From NCBI GenBank assembly GCA_000146465.1, contig CP001951.1: 64,000 nucleotides of DNA, one strand, 5' to 3'. The notes under the pieces were generated by a model that saw nothing but the letters and a program-made list of their open reading frames with translations, was not told the DNA's origin and searched no databases. Made by a program: the position numbers and the translations under genes. Shown here piece by piece: positions 1-64,000 of the stretch (positions are counted from its first letter, which is position 1; each line of letters begins with the position of its first letter).

Positions 1-2
1 AC

Positions 3-134
3 ACCGACTACTCGTTGAGAGACATAGCCCCGACTGTATTAGAAATAATGGGAATTCCCAAACCAGATGAAATGACTGGGAGGTCGGTGTTGGGAGCCTT
101 CGGCCACACCCTTCCAGCAAGAGATAATCAGTAA
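3..134 (+). CDS. 3' end of a gene truncated by the window edge. The C-terminus resembles the alkaline-phosphatase-superfamily metalloenzyme tail (2,3-bisphosphoglycerate-independent phosphoglycerate mutase / phosphopentomutase-like)
   Basis: Frame 3 is open from the window start to TAA at 132-134. It translates to ...[39 protein letters not shown], matching the conserved L-[AD]-[DN]-[IV]-A-P-T-x-L-x-L-x-G-x-x-x-P-x-E-M-T-G-x-S-L tail of iPGM/DeoB-type enzymes (established family knowledge). No upstream sequence is available. Confidence 0.4.
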
Positions 135-165
135 AAACTAGTTTTCGTTGGAAGAAATCCTTTAA

Positions 166-471
166 TCAGAACATTCCAAAGTCGATTTCAACTTCTTCCT
201 CCTCAGGCTCTTCCTTCTTTCCTGCGTCCCCAGGGACATCAGCTGAAGCCTTGGCCTCCACAGGGGCTGCTGCCTCCTGGGTACTACTCATCAACAGAGT
301 CTTAATCTCAAGTGCGTCCATTTCAAAAAACTCACTGATCTTCGGATGGCTTTCCAGTCCAAAGAACTTGAACACAGAGTCAATCTTCTCTTTGGTCACT
401 TGCTGGTTAGTTGCATATATAAGCAATGCTGCTAGCGGGTACATATCGTTTATCATGTTTTCTTGTGTCAT
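166..471 (-). CDS. 60S acidic ribosomal stalk protein P1/P2 family
   Basis: ATG at 469-471 (reverse complement). 101 aa with a helical N-terminal domain (AALLIYATNQQVTKEKIDSVFKFFGLE), an Ala/Glu-rich hinge and the diagnostic acidic C-terminus EEPEEEEVEIDFGMF (compare ...EESDDDMGFGLFD of P proteins). Confidence 0.75.
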   Translation of the reverse strand: MTQENMINDMYPLAALLIYATNQQVTKEKIDSVFKFFGLESHPKISEFFEMDALEIKTLLMSSTQEAAAPVEAKASADVPGDAGKKEEPEEEEVEIDFGMF

Positions 472-615
472 TCTACTTTAAGCAATTTAACGATATCGGG
501 CCCAAAGTTTGGTAGCCCTTCTGTTGCTTTTGCTTTTATACTTTTCCCTGAAAATTTTGCTTTTCAAGGCAGCCAGGCATTGGAAGGATCCTGTCCACAC
601 CCATAAATCCCTTGG

Positions 616-1875: not shown

Positions 1876-1885
1876 GACTCGGCCC

Positions 1886-2446
1886 ATGGGATCCATGCAG
1901 ACGCATTTTGAGGTTTTTGACAAGATGCTTGAAGAGATCCAACAGCTGCGTCTAGACGCCATCTACTTTACAAAATCGACATCCAGAACAGAGGGGAAAA
2001 TAGAAAAGCTGAGAGGAAAGTGCAAGAGATATAAGGAGAAGTTTGTACGGAAGCCGTCGGAAAGGTATTTCAAAAAGATCGAGAAATTTTATCGAGCAAT
2101 AAAGAAACATCTAGTGAATAATAGGAGGTGTGAAGATGCGTTCCAAGAAGTCATCCATGAGCTTAAGAAGAAATGCGAGGACCTTTGCTCGAGATCCGGG
2201 GTGTCCTTTGACCTGGAATGCCCAGAAATACCAGATGTAAACTGCGTTGTGAACCTGGGAGAGATGGGAAGCAACGAGCAACTATACTGCAAGTGCAAAA
2301 GACCTGCATTCAAAAATATGATAGCATGCGATTCCTTGGACTGCAAGGGGAGATGGTTCCATTTTGAGTGTGTTGGAATTTCAACTGTTCCAAAAACACT
2401 TTGGATATGCCCGGAATGCAGAAAAGCTGGAACGCTGACTAGGTAA
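1886..2446 (+). CDS. ING-family PHD-finger protein (HAT/HDAC complex subunit)
   Basis: ATG at 1886 preceded by GGCCC. C-terminal PHD YCKCKRPAFKNMIACDSLDCKGRWFHFECVGISTVPKTLWICPECRK aligns with the ING PHD signature (YCxC-x-x-SYGEMIGCDN-x-x-C-x-x-EWFHF-x-CVGL-x-x-x-P-x-G-x-W-x-CP-x-C). Confidence 0.75.
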   Translation: MGSMQTHFEVFDKMLEEIQQLRLDAIYFTKSTSRTEGKIEKLRGKCKRYKEKFVRKPSERYFKKIEKFYRAIKKHLVNNRRCEDAFQEVIHELKKKCEDLCSRSGVSFDLECPEIPDVNCVVNLGEMGSNEQLYCKCKRPAFKNMIACDSLDCKGRWFHFECVGISTVPKTLWICPECRKAGTLTR

Positions 2447-2498
2447 GCGGAGTTGATACAATAAAAGATTGTTTAGTTGTCTAGGTATCGGGAAGAGA

Positions 2499-3131: not shown

Positions 3132-3309
3132 GGAGGGGTCCTTGATGCAGAGATACTTGTTGAATTTGAAGGAATATATCCAGAGTGGTGAGAGAATGGG
3201 AAGAGAGATGGAAGAGAATGGAAAGGAAGGAGTAACAATCTGAAGGATCTGAGGAGAGAATAGATTCTAGAAAAAAAGAAAAAATTTTACCCTTCAAGAG
3301 GAGTAGTCC

Positions 3310-4797
3310 ATGGAGATAGACGAAAGCAAGAGAGCAAGCAGTGATTCATTAACAATATATGTAGGAGATCTCTCGCCCAAGACCCTTGACTCGGATCTTT
3401 TTAGGATCTTCTCAAATGTGGGAAAGGTTTTGAATGTCAAGCTGATTAAGAGGGGAGAGCCTGTTTCATCCTTTGCATTTGTGACATTTGAAAACGAGGA
3501 GGAGGCAGAGAGGGCAATCAGGGAGTATAAGCACTATGAACTGCATAATAGACAGATAAGGGTAATGAGGAAGGACGAAAGACCCCCGGAGACAGGGAAC
3601 ATCTTTGTCAAGAATCTTCCTGAGAACTTTACGAGCAAGGACCTTGATGATGCGTTTTCGATGTTTGGAGAGATTACCAGCTGCAAGGTTGCAACAACAT
3701 CGCATGGAAAGTCGAAGGGATATGGGTTTGTTCAGTTTAAGGAGAAGAAGGCAGCGAAGAAGGTGATCAAGAACTTCAACAACCTCAATGGGCTTATGCT
3801 TGGAGAAAACAAGATTGTTGTGGAGCTGTATAACCCGGAGATGAAGAAGGGAGAGAACAAGAAGACACCGACGATGTTTACAAACTGTTTTATTAAGAAT
3901 TTTCCTGTTGATGTTGAGGAAGAGAATCTTCGAGAGCTTCTTGAGAAGTACGGGAAGGTGACGTCCTTGTTCTTCCCGACGAAGGAGGATGGAAAACCAA
4001 AAGGATTTGCATTTGCTAATTTTGAGAGCCATGAGTGTGCTCTGAATGCTATCAAGAATCTCCATGAGACATTTCCCTTCGGGGACGGCGAGAGTGGGGA
4101 GCCGTTCTACATCCAGAAAGGGCAAAGAAAAGAAGAGAGGGCAGAGGAACTCCGAAAGACGTTTGAGCAGCTGAGCATGCAGGGGCAGAGCTACAAGAAG
4201 AATCTCTACATAACAAACATTCCCGAGGGCTTTGGGGCTGAGGAGCTTAATAACATATTCAGAGAGTTTGGAAACATCACATCTATGTCTGTGGGGACTG
4301 ACGGAGCCAACAGCCAGAAGCAGTATGCCTATGTGTGCTACTCGACGCCGGAGGAGGCCAGCATAGCTGTGGAAAGAGGGAATGAGATATATCTTGATGG
4401 AAACAGGCTTCAGGTTGCATACTTCAAGAATAAGCTGGAAAGAATGAAAGAGAAAGAATTTGGAAGCATTGGATACAAGCCGAATATCCCATACATGTAT
4501 AACCAGGGGGTTAATTTTGTACCCAATGGATTCAAGCGTGAAAGAAACCGAGGAGGATCTGCAAAGGGATACAGCAGCGAACTCGAAAAGCTACATGGTC
4601 TTGTGCTTGCAGAAGCACCATCTTTCAAGAGCCAATGGAAGAGCTTCGGGGTGAACAACGAGGCCGAGTTTACCAGCAAGGTTACAAGGGCCTTTCGTAA
4701 CAAATCCGAAGAAGAAATCAAGGATATGATCGACCTGGACTTTGTGCTTGCAAAAAGCATAGCAGCGGTTATTGAGAACGACAACTCTAGCGACTAA
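3310..4797 (+). CDS. PAB1: Polyadenylate-binding protein (four RRMs)
   Basis: ATG at 3310 preceded by TTTTACCCTTCAAG. Four RRMs with RNP1 octamers: KGYGFVQF (RRM2) and KGFAFANF (RRM3) are clear; RRM1 SFAFVTFENEEEAERA; RRM4 QYAYVCYSTPEEASIA. The order and spacing are as in PABP. Confidence 0.75.
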   Translation: MEIDESKRASSDSLTIYVGDLSPKTLDSDLFRIFSNVGKVLNVKLIKRGEPVSSFAFVTFENEEEAERAIREYKHYELHNRQIRVMRKDERPPETGNIFVKNLPENFTSKDLDDAFSMFGEITSCKVATTSHGKSKGYGFVQFKEKKAAKKVIKNFNNLNGLMLGENKIVVELYNPEMKKGENKKTPTMFTNCFIKNFPVDVEEENLRELLEKYGKVTSLFFPTKEDGKPKGFAFANFESHECALNAIKNLHETFPFGDGESGEPFYIQKGQRKEERAEELRKTFEQLSMQGQSYKKNLYITNIPEGFGAEELNNIFREFGNITSMSVGTDGANSQKQYAYVCYSTPEEASIAVERGNEIYLDGNRLQVAYFKNKLERMKEKEFGSIGYKPNIPYMYNQGVNFVPNGFKRERNRGGSAKGYSSELEKLHGLVLAEAPSFKSQWKSFGVNNEAEFTSKVTRAFRNKSEEEIKDMIDLDFVLAKSIAAVIENDNSSD

Positions 4798-4883
4798 GTT
4801 CTACTATAAACATTAAAGCCTTTTTAACTTTGAACTTGAATGTGTTCGCACCTCAGGAGAGTCTGGGAGGAGGCGAGAGACAA

Positions 4884-4954
4884 GGGGGATTATCTTAGTG
4901 GTAGAGGATTTGCTTCGCATGTGAATTGCCCGGGTTCGATTCCCGGATCCTCCA
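4884..4954 (+). tRNA. tRNA-Ala (anticodon CGC)
   Basis: Cloverleaf read by hand. Acceptor GGGGGAT/ATCCTCC carries the G3:U70 wobble pair (the alanine identity element). D-loop AGTGGTAGA. Anticodon stem TTTGC/GTGAA with loop TTCGCAT (anticodon CGC). T-arm CCGGG-TTCGATT-CCCGG, discriminator A. No encoded CCA. Confidence 0.75.
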
Positions 4955-5004
4955 TTCCATTTTTCAAAGAGCAATAATTTCAACAGACTTTAGTCCCGAG
5001 TTCG

Positions 5005-6075
5005 ATGCTGTTTTCAAAGGAGACTCTCAAGTCTTTTGCACAATCAAAGGGGATTTCCAACATTGACGACGACGCACTGAGGGTTTTGTCCCAGGATCTG
5101 GAGTATAGAATCAAGGAGGTGTGCCAGGAAGGAAGCAAATTCATGGTTGGCTCAAAGAGGACAAAGCTGTCGATCGATGACATCAACTATGCTCTAATCA
5201 GCAGGAATGTAGATCCACTGTTTGGATATGATCCTCAGGAGAGCCTTGTTTTCCGCGGTCTTCCCTCGAATGTATACTATGTTCCTGACGAGGAGATTGA
5301 TCTTGAGGAGTATCTTGACAGGCCTCTTCCCAAGATTCCTCTTCGGCCGTCGATTCAATCTCACTGGCTAGCCATTGAAGGAGTGCAGCCCCAGATTCCC
5401 TACAACCCGATACTTCTTGAAAAGCCAGTTGCAAAGAAGGACACACTAGGAACATACCAAGAGGAGGCCGAGCTGAAGTCCCAGAATAGGCATATGCTCA
5501 CAAAGGAGCTGAGCATGTATTTTGACAAGGTTATCCAGGCCATGGAAACCGACGAAGAGATAGCAATGGAGTGCCTGCACAACGAAAGTGGGATCCAGCA
5601 GCTTGTTCCATATTTCATTCACCATTTCAATGAGCAGATAGTGAAGAACATAAAAAACAAAGAAAAGCTCATGACGGTTATGATGGTTTATAACTCTCTG
5701 CTAAGGAACAAGTACATCTTCATCGATCCGTATCTCCACCAGATCCTCCCCTCACTTATAACATGTGTGATTGGGAAAAGCGTTGACGACGAGGTCAGGA
5801 GAGTGGCCGCAGATGTTGTCAAGTATGTTTTTAGTAACTTTTCCAGTTCCTACAAGACACTTGCGCCAAGGATCATTAACACCCTCAGCAAGGCATGGCT
5901 GGACAAGGAGAAGACAGAGTCCACGCAGTATGGGGCTTTGCTCTGCCTAAGCCTCCTGTCAAAACATGTTGTAGAGACTGTTGTAAAGCCTAAGGCCGAC
6001 TACTATGTTAAGGAAATCAACAATCCACGGGTTACGGAGCTTCTGGATGACATTCTGAAAAAGAACGATATTTAA
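5005..6075 (+). CDS. TAF6: TFIID subunit TAF6 (histone-fold TAF)
   Basis: ATG at 5005 preceded by GTCCCGAG. The N-terminus LKSFAQSKGISNIDDDALRVLSQDLEYRIKEVCQEGSKFMVGSKRTKLSIDDINYALISRNVDPLFGYD aligns closely with the TAF6 histone-fold/TAF domain (SVKVVAESLGI...EVSYRIKEI...[25 protein letters not shown]). Confidence 0.75.
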   Translation: MLFSKETLKSFAQSKGISNIDDDALRVLSQDLEYRIKEVCQEGSKFMVGSKRTKLSIDDINYALISRNVDPLFGYDPQESLVFRGLPSNVYYVPDEEIDLEEYLDRPLPKIPLRPSIQSHWLAIEGVQPQIPYNPILLEKPVAKKDTLGTYQEEAELKSQNRHMLTKELSMYFDKVIQAMETDEEIAMECLHNESGIQQLVPYFIHHFNEQIVKNIKNKEKLMTVMMVYNSLLRNKYIFIDPYLHQILPSLITCVIGKSVDDEVRRVAADVVKYVFSNFSSSYKTLAPRIINTLSKAWLDKEKTESTQYGALLCLSLLSKHVVETVVKPKADYYVKEINNPRVTELLDDILKKNDI

Positions 6076-6099
6076 TGTCTGGACTGGCCTGGAAAGCCT

Positions 6100-6867: not shown

Positions 6868-6961
6868 CTGGACGGGTGTTGTGAAGGAGCAGATAATCTA
6901 CTTTTTGCCCAGGGTAGTTAGGCTCTCATCGAGAGATATCATAATCCCAAACCGATAGCCC

Positions 6962-10168: not shown

Positions 10169-12904
10169 GGCAGTATTTGTACTTGTGGTTCTTCTTTTCC
10201 AACCTGTCTTGGAAAACCATTTTGGAATCAACAAATCGCTTGTTTTCGGGACCCCAGAGATATGGAAATATTTGCCAATGATCCTTTCCTGGAGGAAGGG
10301 ATGTGCAATGCACCCATAGGGACATTTGACAAGCACTACAGACTTTCTAGGAACTTCATTGCAGACCTTGTGCATCTGGGGCCCATTCTTGTATCTGTTG
10401 CTGTTGAAAAGGATTTTTCAAGAGCATTGGTAAGGTCTGTTCTGGGGTTCAAGGAGTACAGGTTTTACAGTAAGCATATTGAAGAGTGTCCATATTTTTT
10501 CACTGTGAGAAATAGCCTTTCCAGGTATTTTGTAGATACCATCGACAATTGGAGACATGTAGAGATTGCTCCAGAGCAGAGGGAGTCTTCTTTGATGGGA
10601 ATTTTGGGGTCGATCTTTTCATTTGGGGCCTGGCCGTTGAGAGATGAGTCTGGGGGAGGAAGGAAAAAGATGTATGATGCAATCTCCTCTGGAATGATGG
10701 GATGCCCAGAAAGGTATTCTGCCAAGGAGATAATGAATAAGATGGCAGAGGTGAGGGTGGAGTATGCCAGGGGCGTAGATAATGAATTCTATACGAAACC
10801 AATTTATGTCGATTTGGTTTGTGAGAGCAGCAAGAGGATTCCGCGGGAGATGCTTGGGAAGAGGTTTATTGATCCTGAGGACACCCTTTCTGTATCCTCG
10901 GATGATTTAGAAGACATAAAGTCCCCCACCCACTCTGGAGAGAAAAGACTACGGCAGGCACTCCTCGGATTTCTTTTCAATGAAGTTGAATACTTTTGCC
11001 AGGTGAACGGGTTCTACCTGGATATTGTCTCCAAAGCACGGAAATCCGAGATAAACTTTGAGGATGTGTTCAAAGGGTTCTACAAGGTTCACAGCTTCGA
11101 GGCTGGATTTATAGAATCAATGAGAGATATAGTGGAAGAAGCAGGGTTTAAGATGGATAGAATCCTTTCTGATCCCCAATACTTTGCAGATACAATGAGG
11201 GATAATGGGGTTGGAGAGATTAAAATGGATGACGAAGAGATTCTGGAGAAGGTCCTGGACTCATTTGAAAGGCATCTCAACGGATTCCGATGCTATGAAG
11301 ATATGATGTTATTCCATGAAGAATATATTGAAACCTTGGAGAAGGTCAGGAGTTACGACTGGGCACCGGACTACAGGGTTGTAAACGATTGCTTCTGCAA
11401 CTGTCTGCAGCGAATTGTGAGGTATCCAATTCTTATTGATGACATTCTTCAGAACCTCACCTTCTCTCTGCATGAGAAGAGAGTAAAGAAGATCTATGCA
11501 AAAATGACCAAGCTCATCAACATAATCGACAAGAAGAAAGAAAGACATGACAATATCCGATGCGAGCAGCTGATCAGGGAAAAGGTTGAGGAGATTCCTG
11601 GGGAGGTGGCTGAAAGAAAAGCGAACTTTCTTTTTCAATTGAATTGCGAGGATTCGAATGGAGATCCTATTGCATTGTTCTTGTTCCGTGAAATGGTTAT
11701 TATTGCAGATAGAGAAGGCCCTTCCTTACCTATCCAGGACCCTAGGTGTGGAAGGTACTTTTTCCGGCATTCCCTGAGGCTAGAGGATATAGAAATAGTT
11801 TCTTTTGGAACAACTGGGATAAAGATAATTGGGAAGGGAAGTCTGAAAGGAAACGAGATGTACGAGATGAAAGAGGTTTATAGTGACGTCTCTATTGGAG
11901 TGATGTACTTTTCAAAAGGATCTCCTCATTCTGTGAAATGGTTCATCGAGGAGTACCACAAAGCGGGAACCGACTCTGGAAATGGATTGTATGCATCGGG
12001 AAATGTGTTTTTCAGAGTTCTCAAGGACTCCGAAGAAGGAGGCCAAGAAAGAAAAAGAGATTTGATAATATATGTAGGAGATGTAGGATTGGATATATCT
12101 TCAGATTCCAATTCCGCACACCTTGATCTTGAAAATGGAGCTTTCACAACAAAGGGACAAAGTATTCAACACTCCATAAACTACGGAAAAGACGAGATAA
12201 AGCAAAAGTTTGGAGAGATTGTAGGAAATGGGGTCAGAGCCAGGAAAGCATGGATGGCCTCAAAAGATACACCTGGGAAATGTCCTGAGCTGTTTGCCAT
12301 GTACAGGATAAAGCTTAGGGAGATTGTAGAGGAATGTGGGGACTCTTCAGTTGTTGAATTCAATGGAAGATTTTCCAAATGCAATTCATCCACCATAACC
12401 CGGAAGATTCGTGTAGCAGAAGGGATCATAAGATATCTATCAAGATCTTTGCCATATGTAGGATGCAGAAGCTCTGGTGGAAAATATCTTTTTTCTAGTG
12501 CAGGGCTAGATAGAAGCAGACTTAAAGAAGAAGAGATGGTGAACTTCCTAGAAAAGGCCCTAAGCACAGAGGAACTAGAAGATTACGCCTTTTCCGAATA
12601 CAATGCAGAAGACATCCTATACCTGCTGATGTATTTCATACGTACAAGCATGTACACGTTCTTTAGAATAGAAGACATAGAAACATTGCACAGAACACTG
12701 TTTGTAGATAAAATTCATTTTCTAGGAGCAGTTGTTCCAAAGATGAGCAATCCTTCATTTGTCTCGTCCCTTTTCGAAACCATAGTCACAGCCCGAGACA
12801 AGCTTTGTATTGTGCCAACGCTGGATATGTTTCTAGTTATGTTTTCCCCATTCCAGGTGTCCGAGCAGGAAATGGCCGAAATTGTGACTAAGATTTGCTG
12901 GTGA
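10166..12904 (+). CDS. Dbl-homology (DH) domain Rho-family GEF
   Basis: The DH region runs from KRLRQALLGFLFNEVEYFCQVNGFYLDIV through to YRVVNDCFCNCLQRIVRYPILIDDILQNL, which matches the L-x-x-P-x-QRI-x-RY-x-LLL helix. A PH-like segment follows. Confidence 0.5.
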   Translation: MGSICTCGSSFPTCLGKPFWNQQIACFRDPRDMEIFANDPFLEEGMCNAPIGTFDKHYRLSRNFIADLVHLGPILVSVAVEKDFSRALVRSVLGFKEYRFYSKHIEECPYFFTVRNSLSRYFVDTIDNWRHVEIAPEQRESSLMGILGSIFSFGAWPLRDESGGGRKKMYDAISSGMMGCPERYSAKEIMNKMAEVRVEYARGVDNEFYTKPIYVDLVCESSKRIPREMLGKRFIDPEDTLSVSSDDLEDIKSPTHSGEKRLRQALLGFLFNEVEYFCQVNGFYLDIVSKARKSEINFEDVFKGFYKVHSFEAGFIESMRDIVEEAGFKMDRILSDPQYFADTMRDNGVGEIKMDDEEILEKVLDSFERHLNGFRCYEDMMLFHEEYIETLEKVRSYDWAPDYRVVNDCFCNCLQRIVRYPILIDDILQNLTFSLHEKRVKKIYAKMTKLINIIDKKKERHDNIRCEQLIREKVEEIPGEVAERKANFLFQLNCEDSNGDPIALFLFREMVIIADREGPSLPIQDPRCGRYFFRHSLRLEDIEIVSFGTTGIKIIGKGSLKGNEMYEMKEVYSDVSIGVMYFSKGSPHSVKWFIEEYHKAGTDSGNGLYASGNVFFRVLKDSEEGGQERKRDLIIYVGDVGLDISSDSNSAHLDLENGAFTTKGQSIQHSINYGKDEIKQKFGEIVGNGVRARKAWMASKDTPGKCPELFAMYRIKLREIVEECGDSSVVEFNGRFSKCNSSTITRKIRVAEGIIRYLSRSLPYVGCRSSGGKYLFSSAGLDRSRLKEEEMVNFLEKALSTEELEDYAFSEYNAEDILYLLMYFIRTSMYTFFRIEDIETLHRTLFVDKIHFLGAVVPKMSNPSFVSSLFETIVTARDKLCIVPTLDMFLVMFSPFQVSEQEMAEIVTKICW

Positions 12905-12986: not shown

Positions 12987-13250
12987 ATGGATACAGAGGA
13001 GGAAAAGGCTTTGAGGGAGTCTTCAAGAAACATGAAGACGACCGTCCAGATAATACAGGAGAAGATGGACCAGCAAGCTTTAATATACGAATCCATTGAG
13101 GCCGAAACAGAAAGAAATGGGAAGATTTTGTTCCTGAACATTCGAAGGTTCGAAGAAGCAATCAGGAGAATGAACAGCGATCCAAGGAACAAAATAATAT
13201 TTATGTTATTTCTGGTGATTGTAGGATGCAGTGGATATCTATTCTTTTAG
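12987..13250 (+). CDS. Small tail-anchored coiled-coil protein, SNARE-like (class not assignable)
   Basis: 87 aa from the first ATG; the ORF track began it at TTG 12972. A heptad-patterned ~55-aa helix (ALRESSRNMKTTVQIIQEKMDQQALIYESIEAETERNGKILFLNIRRFEEAIRRMN) is followed by a single C-terminal TM segment IIFMLFLVIVGCSGYLFF. It is wedged between two convergent large genes. Confidence 0.35.
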   Translation: MDTEEEKALRESSRNMKTTVQIIQEKMDQQALIYESIEAETERNGKILFLNIRRFEEAIRRMNSDPRNKIIFMLFLVIVGCSGYLFF

Positions 13251-16392: not shown

Positions 16393-16440
16393 CAAAGGGT
16401 ATACTCATCAAAGTTTTATAGGTTCCTTGCCTACTGCTCT

Positions 16441-17013: not shown

Positions 17014-17061
17014 CCTACCCAACGGAGGGCATCTGCTTTACGTTTATGCTTCCTTTAAGAC

Positions 17062-17805
17062 ATGATAGAACAGATCTTGCTTGAGAGAGAAAGGATAATT
17101 GGTTCTCCAGTAGCCCCTTGTATGCTTCTCGATTTGTTTGGACTGTTCGGAGGAAAGCCTTCATGGTCTCTAAGTCCAAAAAAGTTTGAAGGGTGCAACC
17201 AGAACAACTTCGGAGGAAAAGTGATAGTCCCGCAATCCGTTCTGGTTGATCTTGTATCGTTCCAGATCCAACCTCCATTTACATTTGAAATTTCACACTC
17301 CGACGGGGTTTTCAAGACCCATTGTGGAGTCTTGGAGTTTACTGGCGAGGAAGGCCAGGTAGTTGTTCCTTCATGGATGTACCAGCAACTTTCTATGGGA
17401 GATGTAGACAAGGTCGAGCTCAAATATATGACTTTTCCACTTGGGAGGTTTGTAAAGCTGATTCCTCACTCTGTAGACTTCCTTGAGGTCGAAAACCCAA
17501 AGCAAGAGCTGGAGCTGTGTCTGAGAAACTACCAGGTCCTTTCCGAGGGAGATGAGATCTTGTTCCAGTTTGATGAAGTTGGATCGATGAGATTCACAGT
17601 TGCACATATAGAGCCATCAAGCAGTGCAGTATACATTGTAGACACAGATCTGGCTGTTGACTTCCTGGAACCAATTGGATTTAAGGACAAGGTGGAGAGA
17701 GAAAGGACTGTTACAAAGTACATCGAAGTAGTAAATTCAAACTATGACATAAAGCCAATCCGGATGAAGAAGCTTGGGCTGTATATGTATAAGTCAGCAG
17801 ATTAA
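17062..17805 (+). CDS. UFD1: Ubiquitin fusion degradation protein 1 (Cdc48 cofactor)
   Basis: FGGKVIVPQSVL...THCGVLEFTGEEGQVVVPSWMYQQL...YMTFPLGRFVKLIPHSVDFLEVENPKQELELCLRNYQVLSEGDEILFQF aligns along the whole UFD1 N-domain (GGKIIMPPSAL...THCGVLEFVADEG...DFLDITNPKAVLENALRNF). Confidence 0.8.
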   Translation: MIEQILLERERIIGSPVAPCMLLDLFGLFGGKPSWSLSPKKFEGCNQNNFGGKVIVPQSVLVDLVSFQIQPPFTFEISHSDGVFKTHCGVLEFTGEEGQVVVPSWMYQQLSMGDVDKVELKYMTFPLGRFVKLIPHSVDFLEVENPKQELELCLRNYQVLSEGDEILFQFDEVGSMRFTVAHIEPSSSAVYIVDTDLAVDFLEPIGFKDKVERERTVTKYIEVVNSNYDIKPIRMKKLGLYMYKSAD

Positions 17806-25584: not shown

Positions 25585-26054
25585 CTTCCTTTTGGGAGTT
25601 AAGAAATAGATCTATCAACCCATGCTTTTCGATGTGTTCGGAAATCAAAGTCCTTGAAAGGAACAATGAGACACAGATAGACACTCTTCTCTATGACCAT
25701 ACATTGGTACATATAACTTTCAACACAAAGGAACACCCGTTATCACCAAGAGACCTTTCGATTAACCATTTGGGAAGAAGTTCAAGCGGATCTGTTAAAG
25801 TGTTTGTTAACTCAAAGAAAGTCGACTTTTCGTATGAGCTTGTGTTCGGATATGCGTTAAGCTGCATTGGGATTGAAGAATATGATTGCAAGGTCTATTT
25901 ATTTGACGATACTGATGACCTGTGTGTGTTAAAGAACCTAATGTTTGCAATAGACGAGAAGTTTAAGGCGGGCCTTCGTGTCTTTTCGGATCACAGCAAG
26001 ACAACGGTGTCTTTAGGCGGAAAGATAATTTATGAAACAACTATAGTACTATAA
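25581..26054 (+). CDS. Hypothetical 157-aa protein whose ATG overlaps the Pol epsilon stop (ATGA)
   Basis: ATG at 25581-25583 and TGA (the Pol2 stop) at 25582-25584. The ORF fills the whole spacer up to 50 nt before the ABC-transporter stop. No recognisable motifs. It may be a genuine lineage-specific gene or a spacer ORF. Confidence 0.3.
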   Translation: MTSFWELRNRSINPCFSMCSEIKVLERNNETQIDTLLYDHTLVHITFNTKEHPLSPRDLSINHLGRSSSGSVKVFVNSKKVDFSYELVFGYALSCIGIEEYDCKVYLFDDTDDLCVLKNLMFAIDEKFKAGLRVFSDHSKTTVSLGGKIIYETTIVL

Positions 26055-27819: not shown

Positions 27820-27980
27820 TTTGGGATGGGTTTGAACTTCTTTTATATGCAATGCCGGGAAAAGATGGTTGAAAGACTTTGATGCTCTCGCCTCTGCCTA
27901 ATACAGAAAGGAGATCAAGCCTGAGCCACATACAATGAGATGGACGCTGGATTTCATGAACTAGAAAAAATCACCCCAAC

Positions 27981-35062: not shown

Positions 35063-35104
35063 TGATGTGGCGAGGGGTATAAGTCGCTTTCCAATTCCTC
35101 CCCG

Positions 35105-36524: not shown

Positions 36525-36578
36525 GGCAGGGGTTTCTAATCGCTCAAAATGCGTTAGAAAAAAACTTCAAAAGAAACT

Positions 36579-36893: not shown

Positions 36894-36910
36894 CTTTCCA
36901 AGGGCAGGCT
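36894..36910 (-). promoter_or_regulatory. Start-proximal leader AGCCTGCCCTTGGAAAG immediately 5' of the eL42 ATG
   Basis: The reverse complement of 36894-36910 reads AGCCTGCCCTTGGAAAG-ATG. A near-identical 17-mer precedes the proteasome beta1 gene at 62039-62055. Confidence 0.45.
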
Positions 36911-37042
36911 CAACGAAAGCAATTTTTTCATAGAGTGCAAGTCTTAGAAACGAGGTATAAGAGAATTATTTCAAAGCCAACTAAGCATGCTTCGGACATG
37001 CGGCAAAGTATAGAAATATAAGCATCCGGCCGTGCCCATAAA

Positions 37043-40072: not shown

Positions 40073-40130
40073 CTAAGGGTCTTTCTTTCTCATTTTTTTT
40101 GCTAAACTTCCATATAAGGAAATACTTCTC

Positions 40131-40742
40131 TTACTCAAATTGCATATTAAGGTATTTGATGATATCTTCGGATTTTGTCTTTCCCAGGCCCGGAATCTTT
40201 TCCATCTCCTCAGAAGACTTCCCGAAGAATCTCAGAAGCGTTCCATTGTATTTAAGTATCTGCTGGGCATTGCTCTTGTTCACTTTTGGAAAGGCTGTCA
40301 GAAATCCCTCTTCATCATGGCTTCCCCTTCTTATTGCTTCAATCGACCTCTTTCCTGCTTCATCAAATCCCCGGATATATCGAGAGCATTCGTCTATGCT
40401 GAACCCCAATACCATGGTTAGTGAGGTTGTATCGAAGAGCTCTTGAATAGTTTTGCTATAGTTGGGAATATCTACATGCACTAATAATACCTTCACCTTA
40501 TATGGCTTAAGCTTATTGATCCTCTTATGGATGTATTCGGGTTTGCAGCTATGAAACCGAAGAGATAGGAACAGTAAAGCGGTAGATCTGTTTATCTCGT
40601 AATCGGGCGTTATAGAATTGTCGTAGTGCCAGGATGCATTTGAAAGATAGTTCAGAACATTGTTTCCTTTCTGTAATGGAGAAACTTTTATCATCGATGG
40701 GATAAACTCTGTTCTTTCTATTATGAAAAAAGCTGTTGACAT
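40131..40742 (-). CDS. RAD10: ERCC1 / Rad10 nucleotide-excision-repair endonuclease non-catalytic subunit
   Basis: The first ATG is 40740-42 (rc); the track started at TTG 40770-72, which created a spurious overlap with RRP4. The central domain NVLNYLSNASWHYDNSITPDYEINRSTALLFLSLRFHSCKPEYIHKRINKL...VLLVHVDI matches ERCC1 ([50 protein letters not shown]...RVLLVQVDV). A C-terminal tandem HhH follows (LTAFPKVNKSNAQQILKYNGTLLRFFGKSSEEMEKIPGLGKTKSEDI). Confidence 0.75.
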   Translation of the reverse strand: MSTAFFIIERTEFIPSMIKVSPLQKGNNVLNYLSNASWHYDNSITPDYEINRSTALLFLSLRFHSCKPEYIHKRINKLKPYKVKVLLVHVDIPNYSKTIQELFDTTSLTMVLGFSIDECSRYIRGFDEAGKRSIEAIRRGSHDEEGFLTAFPKVNKSNAQQILKYNGTLLRFFGKSSEEMEKIPGLGKTKSEDIIKYLNMQFE

Positions 40743-40755: not shown

Positions 40756-41457
40756 TTATGAATTTTTTTCAAGTAATTCTTCCATGTTTATGTATCTATT
40801 CTGGGACACCATTGTCTTTATCTTAGAAACAAGACTGGCTATCTCTATGAAAGCCATGGGATCTTCTCGGGTTTTTCCAACCCATATGTATCCGTTACAT
40901 CCCACAATAACCTTGATGTTACCATGAAGGAGGAACCTCGTTCTGAGGGGCTCAAGTAGAAAGTGGGGCGCAAACACCAAGAGACCTTGGCCCAACTTCC
41001 CATACATGTCATTTCTTGTATGTAATGCAATCGTACCGTTTCGGTTGACTTTCTGAACTTCCGATACAACTAGATCGTTGATGTCGAAAAAGTCCCTCAT
41101 GGACATCTCATCCGATTCTTGTTTCCGCCGTTGAACTGTCCCCGGAAGGTTGATGGCTGACAGCCCTAGATAAGCATCTCCTCTACTGCTCAACTCAACC
41201 TTCCACTTCTTGTTGTGGATCCCAATAACCCTCCCCACAACAACATTGCCAACCTCTGGATTGTACTTCATGGAAGAAATAGGATCGATGGAGACGAGCT
41301 TGTTTGTGATCTTCACCCTTCCAAAGTAGGTTGATGCTATATTGCTTCCTCTAAGCTGTGTTCCATGCCCTCTTATATACCCATCGGACTCTAGAACGTC
41401 TTCCCCGGGAAGAAACAAAGTCTTCATTAGGGTACCGTTTCTGCGGCAAAAAACCAT
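40756..41457 (-). CDS. RRP4: Exosome cap subunit Rrp4 (S1/KH RNA-binding)
   Basis: N-terminal PGEDVLESDGYIRGHGT (Rrp4 N-domain). S1 region GNVVVGRVIGIHNKKWKVELSS...LPGTVQRRKQESDEMSMRDFFDINDLVVSEVQKVNRNGTIALHTRNDMYGKLGQGLLV. KH-like tail GNIKVIVGCNGYIWVG. An alternative start at the second Met (41427) is preceded by GGTACCCTA. Confidence 0.75.
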   Translation of the reverse strand: MVFCRRNGTLMKTLFLPGEDVLESDGYIRGHGTQLRGSNIASTYFGRVKITNKLVSIDPISSMKYNPEVGNVVVGRVIGIHNKKWKVELSSRGDAYLGLSAINLPGTVQRRKQESDEMSMRDFFDINDLVVSEVQKVNRNGTIALHTRNDMYGKLGQGLLVFAPHFLLEPLRTRFLLHGNIKVIVGCNGYIWVGKTREDPMAFIEIASLVSKIKTMVSQNRYINMEELLEKNS

Positions 41458-41496
41458 TTAGATCGTCGGAAATACCGTATTTAGTCAGGCCCCAGG

Positions 41497-45791: not shown

Positions 45792-45831
45792 TAAAGGTGT
45801 TCTTGTATTTTCGATTCTTCAAAAGCCCCCA

Positions 45832-51800: not shown

Positions 51801-53073
51801 CAAGTTCCAAACATTCTATAAAAAGATTATAGAGTTACGGGCCAAGCAGATTAACTTACTTGCCGATGAAAGACCAGAAAAGCTTTTCAGAAACTTCAAC
51901 AGCCTCATAAGTCATTCAATACTAACGTTCAGTAACAAAAAGAAATATCTGTCAAGAATGCTCTCTGTGGAAGGAGTGGATAAATCCTCGTCTTTCTACA
52001 GAGTTTATGTAGATAGGAACGATGTTCTGAGGAGTTCTTATTTTCAAGTGATGGCAAAAAGTCCTGAAGAATTCAGAACAAGAAGACTCGAGATAAAGCT
52101 AACTGGAGAAGAAGGCTTGGACTATGGAGGATTGACAAGAGAATGGCTGGTTCTTCTCTCAAAGGATTTTCTTGATCCTAACTTTGCTCTTTTTGAGTTT
52201 TCCACCGAGGACAAGACAGTAGCTGTTCCATGCAAGAACAGTTATGTTAATCCCGAGCACTTGTCTTACTTCAAGTTTGTCGGGCGTATCATGGCAAAGG
52301 TTATAATGGATGGAAACTTCATCAACTTGTATCTACCGAAGTTTATCTACAAGCATATCCTTGGGAAGAGTTGCGATCTACAGGACCTAGAATCTGCAGA
52401 CCCTGAATTCCACAAATCGCTTGTCTGGATAAGAGATAATTCTGTTGGGAAATCTCTAGGACTAACATTTTCGTTCGATGACGTGAGCTTTGGAGTTCAT
52501 AGAACTGTCGAATTAGTAAAAGGAGGAGCAAATATCTTTGTGGATGACTCGAACAAGGAAGAATATATAAAGTTGGCGACACAATACAGGCTATTTGATG
52601 GAGTCGAACTTCAATTATCTGCACTAAAGTCAGGACTGTTTGAAATACTTGGAAATAGAGCTCTTGAGATGTTTGACGAGAATGAACTTGAGCTTCTAAT
52701 CTGTGGAATTCCTGATATAGACATTGATGACTGGAAGAGTAATACCCTTTATTATGGATATACAGAGAGCTCAAAGACCGTTATTTGGTTTTGGAAAGCA
52801 GTTAAAAGCTTTGACTCTGTCAACAGGGCAAGACTTCTACAATTTGTGACTGGAACATCCACCTTGCCGTTTGAAGGGTTCTCGCATTTACAAGGAAACA
52901 ATGAGATCCAAAAGTTCTCGATCCATAAGATCTCTGACAGAACAGACAGCCTTCCCACTGCGCATACATGCTTTAACCAACTTGTACTTCCAGAGTATTC
53001 CTCCTATGAAAGCCTTCTGAAATATTTGATGTTGGCCATCAATGAATGCTCTACAGGATTTGGTTTTATCTAA
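45832..53073 (+). CDS. Giant HECT-domain E3 ubiquitin ligase (Tom1/HUWE1-like)
   Basis: ATG preceded by AAGCCCCCA. 2413 aa with an armadillo-like helical N-terminal two-thirds and an acidic stretch (DDYGDDESREIEYY...EEERAMESDEAESSS). The C-terminal HECT: LEIKLTGEEGLDYGGLTREW..., the catalytic Cys in TAHTCFNQLVLPEYSSYESL, and the terminal ...GFGFI. Confidence 0.85.
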   Translation: MEERFEWRWMGSPLEEKLHEYIRSMVEEEDLDCLAKKITAYFDIWPFKEFSLRCWRILSDKLIDIISSLEKKYFSEGIQMFKMSEEDKSLLIGIFKLFQRIFGYSRQRHPLDVSTQVMKFIYAMDLDVVIEAHKMLVFCLNYSIGLDEFSDDHDILFKCLGINSELNGEKILSLSEKAFVSIPKDLEGEDVFWTLKKNVDEYGRGNLVFELRQRINNENRDGLNVLKVLGTCIFLILAKGEGAFDEIVEKIDFGEIWRFAGEELSENMEFAIMNLLDILIYDEFDFGRISRILELSNTKGFFYKRFVNGFDEWTFERHMVFLIYNTLVGSQKTKYLKMNVLMEVLPKFHECSPDVRYHFLRTVRMHCKETNSRGTAEFISRNGVGILTEYLRHAEKYDVNENVNLKYSLKILSEIYMDERNRGVVGNFEDSPFLDVIVATIQKLCLFDSRIVSVCIGILSSFMFEEPLNLPIFMERGVNVVLKTQLSVEHTLEYVSAFVSYIDAFSLNLSFQKEISHGEYLFKLLVLCREEEFLGSMSNTNKMVSLLNVLIMHHPIFKEDILKFYRFEIGYLKNLFSEESSSLLVEKEYCIEIFNNFFSLVEKMEVYPEEKDADGFFNNVFDLVTNPAYSCNMQNFFKGSFGEVYRTIYRESRTSLDKPFEQLISDTMKIIELSRMSEEQDTRDWKKAMKMEQWCGAEADELIFSYESQISLACILCEDFMELIDNGVKTRLFKAMADLYLMLIRFSGAFISISNFEEHRFLSTYRSIRLKLEESTTKESIRLHLLQSVYLCNLFLLQRMYLLEIKDSFDKTLELVERLVEVMALEGDDSITLGLRAIERLSKNFGKEHYEAISREWFIKSLLKPHSRSDRLIAVINFLSSQLSSKINSDPKLRSMLLEYLEEIDISVSSDLRKVELSNMVIEAIGRIFGDGGSLSDDEMEMIFRIYERFYISPLCSRLMIKRMIRLPRFTMRLVRIKAFPTFQYFLMKDEKVYEHACFIVNRFFEYSDEFIEMASNVLLFGTVGRCPHRIDIKEIGKKISGLVMSEVSSPKVLFFLIMYFRLLHRLGMPRHCGFDLGKLISRVKTCDEMTLMRILISYIITPDIDSILERSGIPSRRIRSKDREFLKSHDFLIYRDYDLFVEKCLKKSGLGPIDGICFKHGCNRTFSLKGEEISVSDKEIDCSKTFIRKLVLLLDTQEYFGMVIQLLCEMMFNHPSLLHDICRYQVLDIVYERCIRKMDVSSKHKVTGELHWGIMLFVIGLYSEVLLSKSSTGSEKKSETEQENTRKSLPSVSDFLLEKIKDGSNEDFLNVSFILVRSLTPLFILRHEDEEDTTMERFREISIFMGSVGIFEKIIKRIIAVDESDPKYITCIQCSLDYLGRVFRHCYGDILQDLDDYGDDESREIEYYSLVSEDHGFEESIFDSDESYFFDDPPFHEIEEERAMESDEAESSSQSENTVFIKSIENDHEMPTEMYLISSEYYNISAESRTEIEALMCRKLYVDLIDSSTSCYTWMVNNFQKSIVCELREPSVHCKEPERSLNEDDKDEGYVTDGEEKMIWNFEPTNDEDNLEDTNEALDTSNPPDREEIEEENEDVGSSESDVGSQNGEIPTLDPDNLNRMEEDELNEVLKAYFDERRSLSLTYIPLHTGFYERLSSRVRPMFEEMERVYRESFFYDIRTESTKESDEEIMETKENLLEMDLSTFEEFIKKSIVEKDFPFAKSWKLVDALSKDTKMKSVVFKVSNSMISSISSSQEGDLNNYDAVKFRRTLCFLLSIVKSSIRYYGYFRENPEIVRKVFILLGKVKLTNDLLRLVTDFSVIFRKDKDFVFGQDIDLENILGCFGRMVDSECFNLLEEFMENTADHFGPRFLDIILVEIKQQFSILSKDIGKEFPSDAFLESQKIFLRLWKMMTKVIGRSNLCSEERDIALLSLMLNPLWNVFFENQKNKESIEDLINVSDIYEAFFVVGKVFENRFGETENTGCAEMCNKFQTFYKKIIELRAKQINLLADERPEKLFRNFNSLISHSILTFSNKKKYLSRMLSVEGVDKSSSFYRVYVDRNDVLRSSYFQVMAKSPEEFRTRRLEIKLTGEEGLDYGGLTREWLVLLSKDFLDPNFALFEFSTEDKTVAVPCKNSYVNPEHLSYFKFVGRIMAKVIMDGNFINLYLPKFIYKHILGKSCDLQDLESADPEFHKSLVWIRDNSVGKSLGLTFSFDDVSFGVHRTVELVKGGANIFVDDSNKEEYIKLATQYRLFDGVELQLSALKSGLFEILGNRALEMFDENELELLICGIPDIDIDDWKSNTLYYGYTESSKTVIWFWKAVKSFDSVNRARLLQFVTGTSTLPFEGFSHLQGNNEIQKFSIHKISDRTDSLPTAHTCFNQLVLPEYSSYESLLKYLMLAINECSTGFGFI

Positions 53074-54582: not shown

Positions 54583-54702
54583 GGGGCTATTGGTCTAACA
54601 ATTCAGAAGTTTGACGTCCTTTAGAATGATTGGTGCTGGAGAGACAAGTGCCAATCACGGCATAGATTGCTTTATTATTACTTTGAGTTTCAATCCCCAA
54701 CA

Positions 54703-58012: not shown

Positions 58013-58136
58013 TGTTGTTAATGAATAGCTATACCTTTTATTTCAGATTCTGTTTCAAAACTATCCAATCAAGTATAAGTGTATGGAAGGTTCTGGATGG
58101 CTGATGGGATCGCAAAACTTAACAGAACAGCTTTAA

Positions 58137-59342: not shown

Positions 59343-59413
59343 CTTAGGGCCTCAGCCTCCAATTTTTTATCTTTCAAAACAATATCAAAAACAAGGCTTT
59401 TCTCCAAAACAAT

Positions 59414-60622: not shown

Positions 60623-60656
60623 CCTTTCTGCCCTAGTTAATCTCCGGTTTATATCC

Positions 60657-61355: not shown

Positions 61356-61429
61356 TGTTGATCGATCCCTTGCAATTATTTGTAGTTATAACAAATAAAG
61401 AAAAGCCCAAAAATCAACATAAACGGAGT

Positions 61430-62038
61430 TTATTGAAGCACTTTGTCTCCGGGATAGAAATATCTTTGGACCCCATTCCTAGAAATTGCAGACATTCTTA
61501 TGCATCCTCCAGAAGCATTGTCTCTGTTTATTGCACACGAAACTGCGTTTTTGATAAATCCAATTCCTTCCTCAAGACTCATCCCATTTTTCCAATTAAC
61601 ATCGCAATAGCCATATATAAACGCAGATCCAGAGCCTCCAATTGCCCAATCGCACTCCACAAGCGTCCCTCCGAGAGATATGTTGAAGATCCTTGGCTTA
61701 TCGTCGTATCCAGCAACTATGAGACCTGCCAAGAGGCTTGGATTCTCATATATGATCTTACTAGCCAGTGTTGCTGCTCTTTGAACCAAAGGAATAGAGC
61801 TTTCAAGATGTGAATACAGAGTAAGATACATCTTTAGGTACTCAGAAATCATTTGTGTATCTGCCGAGCTCCCTGACCTACAAACAAATATGTTATTTGT
61901 AATCGGTGTAAGCTTGTCAGTCACTCTGCTTGGGATATATGCTCCCATCGATGTTCTTGAGTCTGCTCCAATCAATACTCCATCATCATACTTTATTGCA
62001 ATAATGGTGGTGCCTGTCATCTCCTTCTTATTAAACAT
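61430..62038 (-). CDS. 20S proteasome catalytic subunit beta1 (PSMB6/Pre3-type)
   Basis: Propeptide MFNKKEMTG, then the mature N-terminal Thr: [53 protein letters not shown]...[13 protein letters not shown]...GGCIRMSAI aligns along its length with beta1 ([53 protein letters not shown]). Confidence 0.85.
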   Translation of the reverse strand: [202 protein letters not shown]

Positions 62039-62055
62039 CTTCCAAGGGCAAGGCT
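62039..62055 (-). promoter_or_regulatory. Start-proximal leader AGCCTTGCCCTTGGAAG immediately 5' of the proteasome beta1 ATG
   Basis: The reverse complement of 62039-62055 reads AGCCTTGCCCTTGGAAG-ATG. It differs from the eL42 leader (36894-36910) only by one T insertion and one A deletion. Confidence 0.45.
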
Positions 62056-62110
62056 ATCTTTCTTTTGTTATCAAAGATACCAAAAACACCTCGATAGAAA
62101 TGTATCACTC

Positions 62111-63979
62111 CTAGACAATGTTCTTAAGAGGGAGTGTGAGATTAACAACAATGTTCTCTTCAGTTGTGTCTCTGTCCACACAGAAATACCCAATGCGTTG
62201 GAATTGGAATCTATCCTCGACACCGGCTTCACTAATTCTTTTGTCGCAAAGCCCGTGGACAATTTTTAGACTATCTTTGTTCATCTCCTCAAGATAGGTA
62301 GAGTCCTTTGGACTGAATGATGTCCAGAGTGGAGAATACATCCTCATCTCTACTCGGACACAGTCCGAACTAACCCAGTGGATGAACTTTTTAGGAATCC
62401 CATCCCATCTTTCTGCAAGGATCCCGTCTTCAGTTACCTTTACAACCCTTATTGGATAAAGCATGTACAACCCAACAGGCTGATCAAGTGTAAGTCTTAA
62501 AAAGTCTCCATCTCCCTTATCCATAAAGTCCGACTTCTCTATGTATATGACTGGAGTAAAGGGAACATTTCTGCTTACCTCTGATCCAGGGAAATCTGGA
62601 ATAGATACACTACAGGGCTCGGCGTTCATTATTGTTACCTTTAAAGGATCTCTTACACACATGATCCTTCTAGAAGTTCTGTTGAGATTGTCTCTAACAA
62701 AATTCTCGAGTTTCTTTACATCCACTATTGTTTCAGCAAAAGTAAGTCCAAGACTCTTACAGAACTCGTTGATGGCTTCAGGAGGGAATCCTCTCCTTCT
62801 CATGCCCTTTATTGTAAAAAGACGGGGATCGTCCAACTCTATCCCATACTTCTTCAGAGGGACCAGCTTCCTCTTGCTCAAAACCGTATTACTTATGTTC
62901 AGACGGCTAAACTCCCATTGGATTGGTTTGTAAATCTCGAGCTGGTCAAGCAGCCAATGATAGCTCTCCTGCCGTGTAAAGAACTCTCTCGTGCAGAAGG
63001 AGTGTGTTACATCTTCCAGGCTGTCAGACACGCAAAGAGCGAACTCATATGTTGGATACACGGTATATCTCACCTTTTTCATAGGATGCACTGCATTCAG
63101 TATTCGAATCCCTATCAAGTCAAGCATTAGAGGATTCTTTGTATTCGTATCCATTTTGAATCGAAGACATGCTGTTCCTTCTTCCCACTTACCATCAACC
63201 ATCTCCTGAAAGATTCTTAAATTCTCCTCGACCGACCTGTTTCTGTATTGGCTTAGATGTGATCTTTCATTCATGTTGTCTGATGTGTATTGTCTTCTTC
63301 TCTCACATATTTCCTCCTGGCTTAAGTGGCAGACATATGCTTTTCCCTTTTTTATAAGCTGAAATCCAAACTCAACCATCTTGTCGAAGTAATCGCTTGA
63401 TGCAGTAACCTTATAGGGCTCAAACCCAAGCCATCGAACGTCCTCATAAATCGAATCAAAGTACTCCACTTCTTCGTTCTTTGGATTTGTATCATCATAT
63501 CTCAAATAAGTATATCCTCCAAATTTCTTGGCATATTCAAAGCTCAAATTTATTGCCTTTGCATGCCCAATATGGAGAATCCCGTTAGGTTCAGGAGGAA
63601 ATCTGGTAACCACTCTCCCTCCTGTTCTCTTTAAGTGCGCTTGCCTTATCTCTTCACTGACCTGTGGGGTTTCCCCAGGTTTTGGAAGTTTCCTGATCTC
63701 TCCTTCTTCCAGCCAGTCTCCTCCTTCTAGGTTTTCCTCATGCTCTTCCACATCATCGGGGATCTTATTTATTTCTTCCATCACAATTCTGAAATCCGCG
63801 CAAGGCATGGTATTTCTTGCTTTGCTAAGCATATCTTTCTTTGATAATCCCTCTCTCCTCATCTTAGCAATGTTATTCTTTATACTCTCCTCGTCAACTT
63901 CATTGGACTTTACAAAGGAAACCATTTCCTCGGCCGAAACCTCTTTTTTCCCCATATGTTTTAAGCACTCCTTCAGCAT
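62111..63979 (-). CDS. Glutaminyl-tRNA synthetase (class I). The 5' end is possibly truncated by the window edge.
   Basis: HIGH motif PEPNGILHIGHAKA. KMSKS variant VLSKRKL. GlnRS-specific acceptor-binding and anticodon-binding beta-barrel blocks (YDDTNP, RYDDTNPKNEE...). The reading frame upstream of the ATG at 63977-79 stays open to position 64000, and that ATG lacks the usual CCC leader, so the true start may lie outside the window. Confidence 0.85.
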   Translation of the reverse strand: MLKECLKHMGKKEVSAEEMVSFVKSNEVDEESIKNNIAKMRREGLSKKDMLSKARNTMPCADFRIVMEEINKIPDDVEEHEENLEGGDWLEEGEIRKLPKPGETPQVSEEIRQAHLKRTGGRVVTRFPPEPNGILHIGHAKAINLSFEYAKKFGGYTYLRYDDTNPKNEEVEYFDSIYEDVRWLGFEPYKVTASSDYFDKMVEFGFQLIKKGKAYVCHLSQEEICERRRQYTSDNMNERSHLSQYRNRSVEENLRIFQEMVDGKWEEGTACLRFKMDTNTKNPLMLDLIGIRILNAVHPMKKVRYTVYPTYEFALCVSDSLEDVTHSFCTREFFTRQESYHWLLDQLEIYKPIQWEFSRLNISNTVLSKRKLVPLKKYGIELDDPRLFTIKGMRRRGFPPEAINEFCKSLGLTFAETIVDVKKLENFVRDNLNRTSRRIMCVRDPLKVTIMNAEPCSVSIPDFPGSEVSRNVPFTPVIYIEKSDFMDKGDGDFLRLTLDQPVGLYMLYPIRVVKVTEDGILAERWDGIPKKFIHWVSSDCVRVEMRMYSPLWTSFSPKDSTYLEEMNKDSLKIVHGLCDKRISEAGVEDRFQFQRIGYFCVDRDTTEENIVVNLTLPLKNIV

Positions 63980-64000
63980 ACTCTCGTTCTTTATGGTTCC

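Follow-up and report, generated by a model that had tools for sequence, protein, structure and literature searches.

A strand-specific C-triplet before most start codons in a compact stretch of Encephalitozoon intestinalis: the known microsporidian CCC-like signal and its probable core-promoter role

The window analysed here, a 64,000-nucleotide stretch of contig CP001951.1 (assembly GCA_000146465.1), holds a densely packed series of genes, and most of their start codons follow closely on a C-triplet (CCC) on the coding strand, the element under study. Over its full length (1-64000) the stretch is identical to positions 150,422-214,421 of CP075167.1, a 277,983-bp record of Encephalitozoon intestinalis ATCC 50506 (assembly GCA_024399295.1) that was found via look-ups of three window proteins. 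This placement follows from the identity of the fetched loci, which agree base for base with 1-20138 and 35832-63073 of the window; a contig of a second assembly shows 0 mismatches across 20506-43187. Furthermore, four of five first-ATG translations that were looked up match E. intestinalis ATCC 50506 proteins exactly, namely a SNF2 helicase (ADM12452.1), a beta-lactamase-fold exonuclease (ADM12455.1), DNA polymerase alpha subunit B (ADM12428.1) and a poly(A)-binding protein (ADM12431.2). A first-pass annotation had described the DNA as that of an Encephalitozoon-like microsporidian, and these exact protein and DNA matches, together with synteny with E. cuniculi, E. hellem and Ordospora, bear this out; a best match outside the microsporidia was considered, and the proteins match E. 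intestinalis exactly. The telomere-to-telomere paper lists CP075158-CP075168 as the eleven E. intestinalis chromosome accessions (PMC10158259), and since CP075167 is the tenth of them, the window probably lies on chromosome 10.

The stretch is compact in the manner that had been proposed for it. Open reading frames (ORFs) called mechanically, from the first ATG and keeping the longest that do not overlap, number 41, and 95% of the whole window is coding. The public annotation has 40 complete protein genes and two more that are cut by the window edges; with one tRNA this makes 43 features, in agreement with the roughly 43 genes estimated at first. Spacers range from 7 to 207 bp (median 66, mean 79), with 1,547 bp per protein gene. 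The longest apparent spacer (4798-5004), from the poly(A)-binding protein gene to TAF6, is occupied by tRNA-Ala, so that the real spacers there are 86 and 50 bp; Rfam and ARAGORN found no other RNA gene in the window. No intron-like signal in or between genes is associated with any gene of the window, as had been stated for spliceosomal introns, and the sole consensus-like GTAAGT...AG match (51816-51859, minus strand) is not a hidden intron, as it lies antisense within the HECT gene. Published values for the E. intestinalis genome are a G+C content of 41.4%, a density of 0.86 genes per kb and intergenic distances averaging 115 bp (Corradi et al. 2010, PMC4355639). The window resembles this type of compact genome in its G+C content of 39-45%, its short spacers, its gene order conserved with E. 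cuniculi and the intron-free state of the stretch. It differs in its shorter mean spacer of 79 bp and in its lower density of 0.65 protein genes per kb, the latter because it contains several very long genes.

Protein shortening was checked for ISWI, whose 823 aa compare with mostly about 810-870 aa in microsporidian orthologues and roughly 960-1130 aa in other fungi, so the claim of shortened proteins holds for this gene. The size comparisons made for Pol2, the Tom1-like protein and the CPSF73-like protein agree with yeast lengths. For Pol2 itself, the 1796 aa given by the first-pass annotation have to be corrected, since the public start at 20254 yields 1776 aa. The size comparisons also fit a mean protein shortening of 15%, as quoted in PMC10815200. 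Neither of two small annotated genes, at 166-471 (minus strand, 101 aa) and 12987-13250 (plus strand, 87 aa), has a recorded Pfam hit or a CCC or GGG triplet within 20 nt of its start; both may encode small proteins peculiar to the lineage or be dubious gene calls. At gene ends, an exact AATAAA occurs within -30..+60 of the stop in 10/40 genes; when four variant hexamers are counted as well, the figure is 24/40. Both are raw counts.

The central observation concerns the nucleotides directly upstream of the start codons. The enrichment test used first-ATG starts, so that it is unbiased by the motif; one start too near the window edge was excluded, leaving 40. CCC is present in -20..-1 of the coding strand at 23/40 of these starts, compared with 11.9% of all other ATGs (p 6e-12), 7.3% of internal in-frame ATGs (p 2e-16) and 9.7% of out-of-frame sense ATGs (p 8e-14). 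Closer to the ATG, in -10..-1, the triplet is found at 19 of the 40 starts, as against 5.2%, 2.0% and 5.1% in the same three control sets. With the publicly annotated starts, the count in -20..-1 rises to 28/40, or about 70% of genes, and a ranking of all 64 trinucleotides in -15..-1 places CCC first (26/40 vs 8.2%, p 5e-19), followed by ACC, GCC, CCT and CCA, which are the flanks of CCC. The comparison with background ATGs had been named beforehand as a possible refutation, and it yields clear enrichment (23/40 vs 7-12%). The first-pass annotation had further reported a C- or G-triplet before about two-thirds of the starts: CCC or GGG does occur in -20..-1 at 25/40 starts (62%) vs 24% of background, an excess carried by CCC alone, and all 18 motif strings that it listed were found before the starts it had paired them with.

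Two features of the motif as first proposed require revision. GGG, named there next to CCC, occurs in -20..-1 at only 3/40 first-ATG starts against a background of 14-18%; the strong enrichment of CCC stands, and GGG is rejected on these statistics as its equal partner. Similarly, CCCTT-like forms are present and CCCT is found in 11/40 genes, but CCCTT itself is limited to a minority (6/40) and is not the consensus: the base after the triplet is A or T in 25/28 genes, the two being about equally frequent, and CCC with either of them next to it is the actual pattern.

One possible objection is that the signal merely reflects base composition, or starts that were picked because they follow CCC. 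Public microsporidian annotations do use the motif to pick starts, and the ATGs of the first-pass annotation had been re-called by eye. Nevertheless, the mechanical first-ATG calls agree, with p of the order of 1e-12 or lower, the spacers contain only 18% C, and the motif is strand-specific, with enrichment of CCC on the coding strand and none of the complementary GGG. The triplet also persists in Ordospora within spacers that are otherwise unalignable. Together, the first-ATG test, the trinucleotide ranking and the persistence in Ordospora exclude a composition or annotation artefact, which we regard as wildly improbable.

The triplet keeps a characteristic position. Its distance to the ATG has a mode of 3-4 nt and a range of 0-17 nt, and C reaches 44% at -8..-5. 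Further upstream, A+T amounts to 79% at -28..-25 and 72% at -24..-21, which places an A/T-rich, TATA-like peak (-28 to -21) about 20 nt upstream of CCC. Such A/T-rich segments, expected of the CCC-like signal above all at highly expressed genes and those for ribosomal proteins, precede the triplet at the genes for ribosomal protein L44 (GAAAAAATTG), the poly(A)-binding protein (AAAAAATTTTACCC) and the proteasomal Rpt ATPase (ATAAAAAATTG). Genes with and without CCC do not differ in A/T-richness at -32..-21 (0.74 vs 0.69, p 0.49). On the coding side, position +4 is A in 13 and G in 15 genes (28/40) and position +5 is A in 21/40; the published values are 38/41% A/G at +4 and 45% A at +5 (PMC2803860, Table 2). 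Position -3 is A or G in 20/40.

The motif is informative for the choice of start codons. At eight genes, the public start lies downstream of the first ATG (1895, 10262, 17122, 20254, 25632, 40694, 41427 and 54579), and in 7/8 the chosen ATG follows CCC, Pol2 (20254) being the exception. The downstream public starts of Pol2 and of a 912-aa ORF were recognised because exact protein look-ups with their first-ATG translations gave no match; likewise, two starts of the first-pass annotation, 1886 and 54582, are replaced by 1895 and 54579 in the public record. For a 140-aa gene, the start at 25632 abolishes an overlap with the Pol2 stop. Orthologue N-termini and upstream in-frame ATGs provided a test at three testable genes, Rad10, Rrp4 and the 140-aa gene. 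In each of them, the first ATG of E. intestinalis lies 10-17 codons upstream of the CCC-adjacent ATG, at least one relative lacks any in-frame ATG further upstream, and the proteins read from the CCC-proximal ATG have conserved N-terminal peptides, MIKVSPLQKGN, for instance, being shared by all four species. CCC thereby marks the orthologue-supported start codon in 3/3 testable cases, which supports its proposed use as an internal criterion for start-codon choice.

Comparison with relatives adds an evolutionary dimension. Orthologous loci were fetched around ISWI and Gcn5, the window at 1-27 kb lying outside this comparison, from E. cuniculi, E. hellem, an Encephalitozoon contig of a public read set, Ordospora pajunii and O. 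colligata. Gene order is common to the window and these loci, save that the Ordospora loci lack or add single genes. When CCC in -20..-1 is scored strictly as present or absent, gene by gene, E. cuniculi and the window agree in 22/22 genes (Fisher p 6e-6), and Ordospora and the window in 20/21 genes (p 1e-4). Aligned without gaps, positions -40..-1 of E. intestinalis and O. pajunii are only 31% identical, near random, and CCC precedes any ATG of the O. pajunii locus at a background of 7.8%. Because the triplet is kept in Ordospora despite this low identity and low background, it is itself under selection. At single genes, the conserved strings can be longer: TGCCCTTGGAAAG-ATG at the start of ribosomal protein L44 is the same in three Encephalitozoon species, and so is TATCCCATCG-ATG at Rad10 in three species. 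The start annotations of the relatives were possibly guided by the motif, which would inflate the cross-species agreement and counts against our interpretation; conserved N-terminal peptides support most of these starts, and a large inflation is thus unlikely.

Absence of the triplet is conserved as well. The genes starting at 33187, 34331, 43112, 44826 and 58012 have no CCC in the window or in E. cuniculi, E. hellem and Ordospora; the CCC-less genes that also lack it in the relatives encode an MS-channel, an exo/endonuclease-phosphatase, an acyltransferase, a formin and an MFS transporter. Conserved TATA-like boxes are found at several CCC-less genes, for instance ATATAAG at position -28 relative to the start at 43112 and, upstream of the start at 58012, GAAATAAAAGG. 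Two others, the Gcn5-like and the PAP2 phosphatase genes, carry GGG near the ATG, which is kept in E. cuniculi and E. hellem in both cases; at the Gcn5-like gene, a conserved GGATATAAAC box lies upstream and Ordospora has CCC. These two possibly represent the rare GGG-like substitute of the literature, two genes being too few for proof.

Some observations on the compared loci stand apart from the motif. The Encephalitozoon contig of the public read set (Logan SRR23946965, contig 58171, 63 kb) has the same gene order, a G+C content of 40.9% and an ISWI 88% identical to the E. intestinalis protein. In O. colligata, positions 3218-5911 of the locus hold a gene for an 897-aa M16 peptidase between two homeobox genes and a 57-aa gene, the latter upstream of the gene for the class-I aminoacyl-tRNA synthetase (tRNA-synt_1c); no peptidase gene occupies this place in the loci of E. 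cuniculi and E. hellem. The individual triplets of the window are collected in Table 1 together with the cut genes and the tRNA. Within the 42-bp divergent spacer 35063-35104, between the NIF phosphatase and metallophosphatase genes, a single TATAAG (35078-35083, plus strand) abuts the GGGG at 35074-35077, which is the minus-strand gene's CCCC, and the CCCC at 35100-35103 belongs to the plus-strand gene; this spacer would be a very economical two-way promoter.

Table 1. C- and G-triplets near start codons, and further features of the window; gap, nucleotides between the triplet and the ATG; first-ATG ORF, ORF of the mechanical call.
Feature	Position	Strand	Gap (nt)	ATG	Gene	Remarks
iPGM gene, cut	ends at 134				iPGM	public annotation
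CCC	609..611	+	4	616	DNA polymerase alpha subunit B	
CCC	1883..1885	+	9	1895 (annotated)		0 nt before first ATG 1886
CCCC	3135..3138	-	3	3131	DnaJ	
CCC	3290..3292	+	17	3310	poly(A)-binding protein	AAAAAATTTTA immediately 5'
tRNA-Ala (anticodon CGC)	4884-4954	+			tRNA-Ala	Rfam, ARAGORN
CCC	4995..4997	+	7	5005	TAF6	
CCC	6874..6876	-	6	6867	ORC2-like	
CCC	6959..6961	+	0 (abuts)	6962	Sec7 protein	
CCCC	10252..10255	+	6	10262 (annotated)		codon 33 of first-ATG ORF
CCC	16397..16399	-	4	16392	APC1-like	TATAAA at -28
CCC	17027..17029	-	13	17013	XPA	
CCCC	17114..17117	+	4	17122 (annotated)	Ufd1	codon 21 of first-ATG ORF
CCC	25619..25621	+	10	25632 (annotated)	140-aa protein	
CCC (of CCCATCCC)	27823..27825	-	3	27819	ABC transporter	ATATAA at -29
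CCCC	27974..27977	+	3	27981	importin beta-like	AAAAAATCACCCC kept in E. cuniculi
CCCC	35074..35077	-	11	35062	NIF phosphatase	GGGG on + strand
CCCC	35100..35103	+	1	35105	metallophosphatase	
CCCC	36529..36532	-	4	36524	167-aa protein	
CCC	36902..36904	-	8	36893	ribosomal protein L44	GAAAAAATTG upstream
CCC	37035..37037	+	5	37043	ubiquitin-conjugating enzyme	
CCC	40077..40079	-	4	40072	ISWI/SNF2 ATPase	
CCC	40699..40701	-	4	40694 (annotated)	Rad10	codon 17 of first-ATG ORF
CCC	41430..41432	-	2	41427 (annotated)	Rrp4	codon 11 of first-ATG ORF
CCCC	41490..41493	+	3	41497	CPSF73-like	
CCCCC	45826..45830	+	1	45832	HECT ligase, 2413 aa	
CCCC	54583..54586	-	3	54579 (annotated)	494-aa protein	
CCCC	54695..54698	+	4	54703	561-aa protein	
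CCC	59347..59349	-	4	59342	proteasome AAA ATPase	ATAAAAAATTG upstream
GGG	60631..60633	-	8	60622	Gcn5-like	candidate GGG-like substitute
GGG	61367..61369	-	11	61355	PAP2 phosphatase	candidate GGG-like substitute
CCC	62046..62048	-	7	62038	proteasome subunit	
Class-I aminoacyl-tRNA synthetase (tRNA-synt_1c) gene, cut	3' part in window, start beyond 64000				class-I aminoacyl-tRNA synthetase, 696 aa	public annotation

The motif agrees with a signal already described for microsporidia. The first description of a CCC-like or GGG-like start-proximal signal is credited to Cornman et al. in PMC2803860, and Peyretaillade et al. 2009 reported the CCC-like signal in E. cuniculi and four further microsporidian species, where an AAATTT-like or adenine-rich segment precedes it and GGG-like motifs rarely take its place (PMC2803860). 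By rapid amplification of 5' cDNA ends (5'-RACE), the mRNA 5' ends of six E. cuniculi genes were mapped to 1-7 nt before the AUG, most of them 1-4 nt and some 6-7 nt upstream (PMC2803860). MicroAnnot 2024 has built the CCC signal into annotation and start-codon correction, and E. intestinalis has already been re-annotated with it (PMC10815200). The first-pass annotation had linked its motif to just such a reported signal near very short 5' untranslated regions with a bearing on start choice, and both sources describe the same (PMC2803860, PMC10815200), the 5' untranslated regions measuring under 7 nt in PMC2803860. An E. intestinalis single-cell RNA-sequencing paper holds no content on promoters or motifs.

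The likeness extends to detail. The window has a coding-strand C-triplet within about 15-20 nt of most starts, an A/T-rich segment just upstream, and the +4 A/G and +5 A bias, and two CCC-less genes have GGG as a candidate substitute; the poly(A)-binding protein gene reproduces the published AAATTT-like plus CCC arrangement (PMC2803860), with AAAAAATTTTA followed by the triplet. Nothing of substance separates the two. Among the 40 genes of the window, GGG is not enriched overall and strict CCC is missing in 30%; the published figures were obtained under a wider CCC-like definition, one degenerate base being allowed.

What the triplet does can be approached from its neighbourhood. It might belong to the upstream gene, as a 3'-end, termination or insulating signal against read-through. 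The spacers are indeed very short, and for Encephalitozoon both overrun of transcription and transcripts spanning several genes are on record (PMC2803860). On the other hand, CCC is at least as frequent at divergent starts, which have no gene end upstream (17/20), as at tandem starts with a same-strand neighbour (11/20), it is rare in the windows directly after stop codons (4/41), and its distance is fixed to the downstream ATG and not to the upstream stop. A signal for the 3' end of the upstream gene can be rejected on the divergent starts, and a role of the triplet for the upstream neighbour is accordingly very improbable.

The interpretation that we favour, at a probability of roughly 0.8, is that this stretch of an E. 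intestinalis core chromosome carries the known microsporidian CCC-like signal and that the triplet serves as a core-promoter element. Specifically, the A/T-rich box and CCC would together form a minimal RNA polymerase II core promoter, a role suggested by the published 5' ends together with the measured geometry, in which about 20 nt separate the box from the triplet downstream of it, and 3-4 nt the triplet from the ATG. CCC would coincide with the transcription start site or lie immediately 5' of it, working in an initiator-like manner, and transcripts would begin a few nucleotides before the AUG. The resulting mRNA would be nearly leaderless, and its first AUG would be used for translation. 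The minority of CCC-less genes would rely on the TATA-like box alone or, rarely, on GGG.

Several points weigh against this interpretation. The placement of the transcription start relative to CCC rests on six genes of another species, E. cuniculi; 10-12/40 genes have no CCC within 20 nt, so the triplet is not obligatory; and the CCC-ATG spacing is variable, at 0-17 nt. To our knowledge, no factor that binds the motif has been reported.

Alternatively, the triplet may be read in the mRNA: as a leader element, Kozak-like or in contact with the ribosome, it would mark the AUG on very short leaders. The C peak only 5-8 nt before the AUG, the way the motif tracks the true start codon and the coding-side bias at +4/+5 would suit such a role, and transcripts starting 6-7 nt upstream, as some of the published ones do, would contain part of the triplet. 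In E. cuniculi, however, most of the published 5' ends (1-4 nt) lie 3' of a triplet with a gap of 3-4 nt to the ATG, so that it would often be untranscribed. In addition, a spacing of 0-17 nt is loose for ribosomal contact, and a fixed distance of about 20 nt to the A/T-rich box is the behaviour of a promoter. A role in the mRNA is therefore less likely than the core-promoter role, and on the whole unlikely. The motif may also be compared with the Kozak context: both are sequence preferences right around the AUG with a purine bias at +4, but the window motif lies 0-17 nt from the AUG, follows no -3 purine rule and is probably largely outside the transcript.

For the core-promoter role, a close parallel is the Initiator (Inr). 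Both are pyrimidine-rich elements at the expected transcription start, at a fixed 20-30 nt after a TATA-like box, and the Inr core, pyrimidine-pyrimidine-A(+1), is similar to a CCC with A or T after it. The window consensus is, however, a plain C-triplet and not YYANWYY, and, in contrast to Inr, we know of no TFIID contact for CCC; the likeness is one of working only, not of membership in the Inr family.

The conserved presence and absence of CCC also raises the question of promoter classes. The higher frequency at divergent than at tandem starts is not significant (Fisher p 0.08, 40 starts), and a link of this trend to read-through transcription is possible. As a speculative and rather doubtful extension, based on about 22 genes, the presence or absence of CCC could be a gene-specific property conserved since the split of Encephalitozoon and Ordospora, which would define two promoter classes, with genes behind a same-strand neighbour depending in part on read-through instead of an initiator of their own.

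Taken together, the sequence, its compaction and its motif are already known, and biologically there is nothing new in them: the genome is published and annotated, and the CCC-like signal has been described since 2009 and is part of microsporidian annotation pipelines. The analysis illustrates that both the lineage and a real regulatory signal are recognisable from raw sequence alone. The gene-by-gene conservation of CCC as far as Ordospora is one modest addition, and it would matter only if it separated promoter classes, if that is true.

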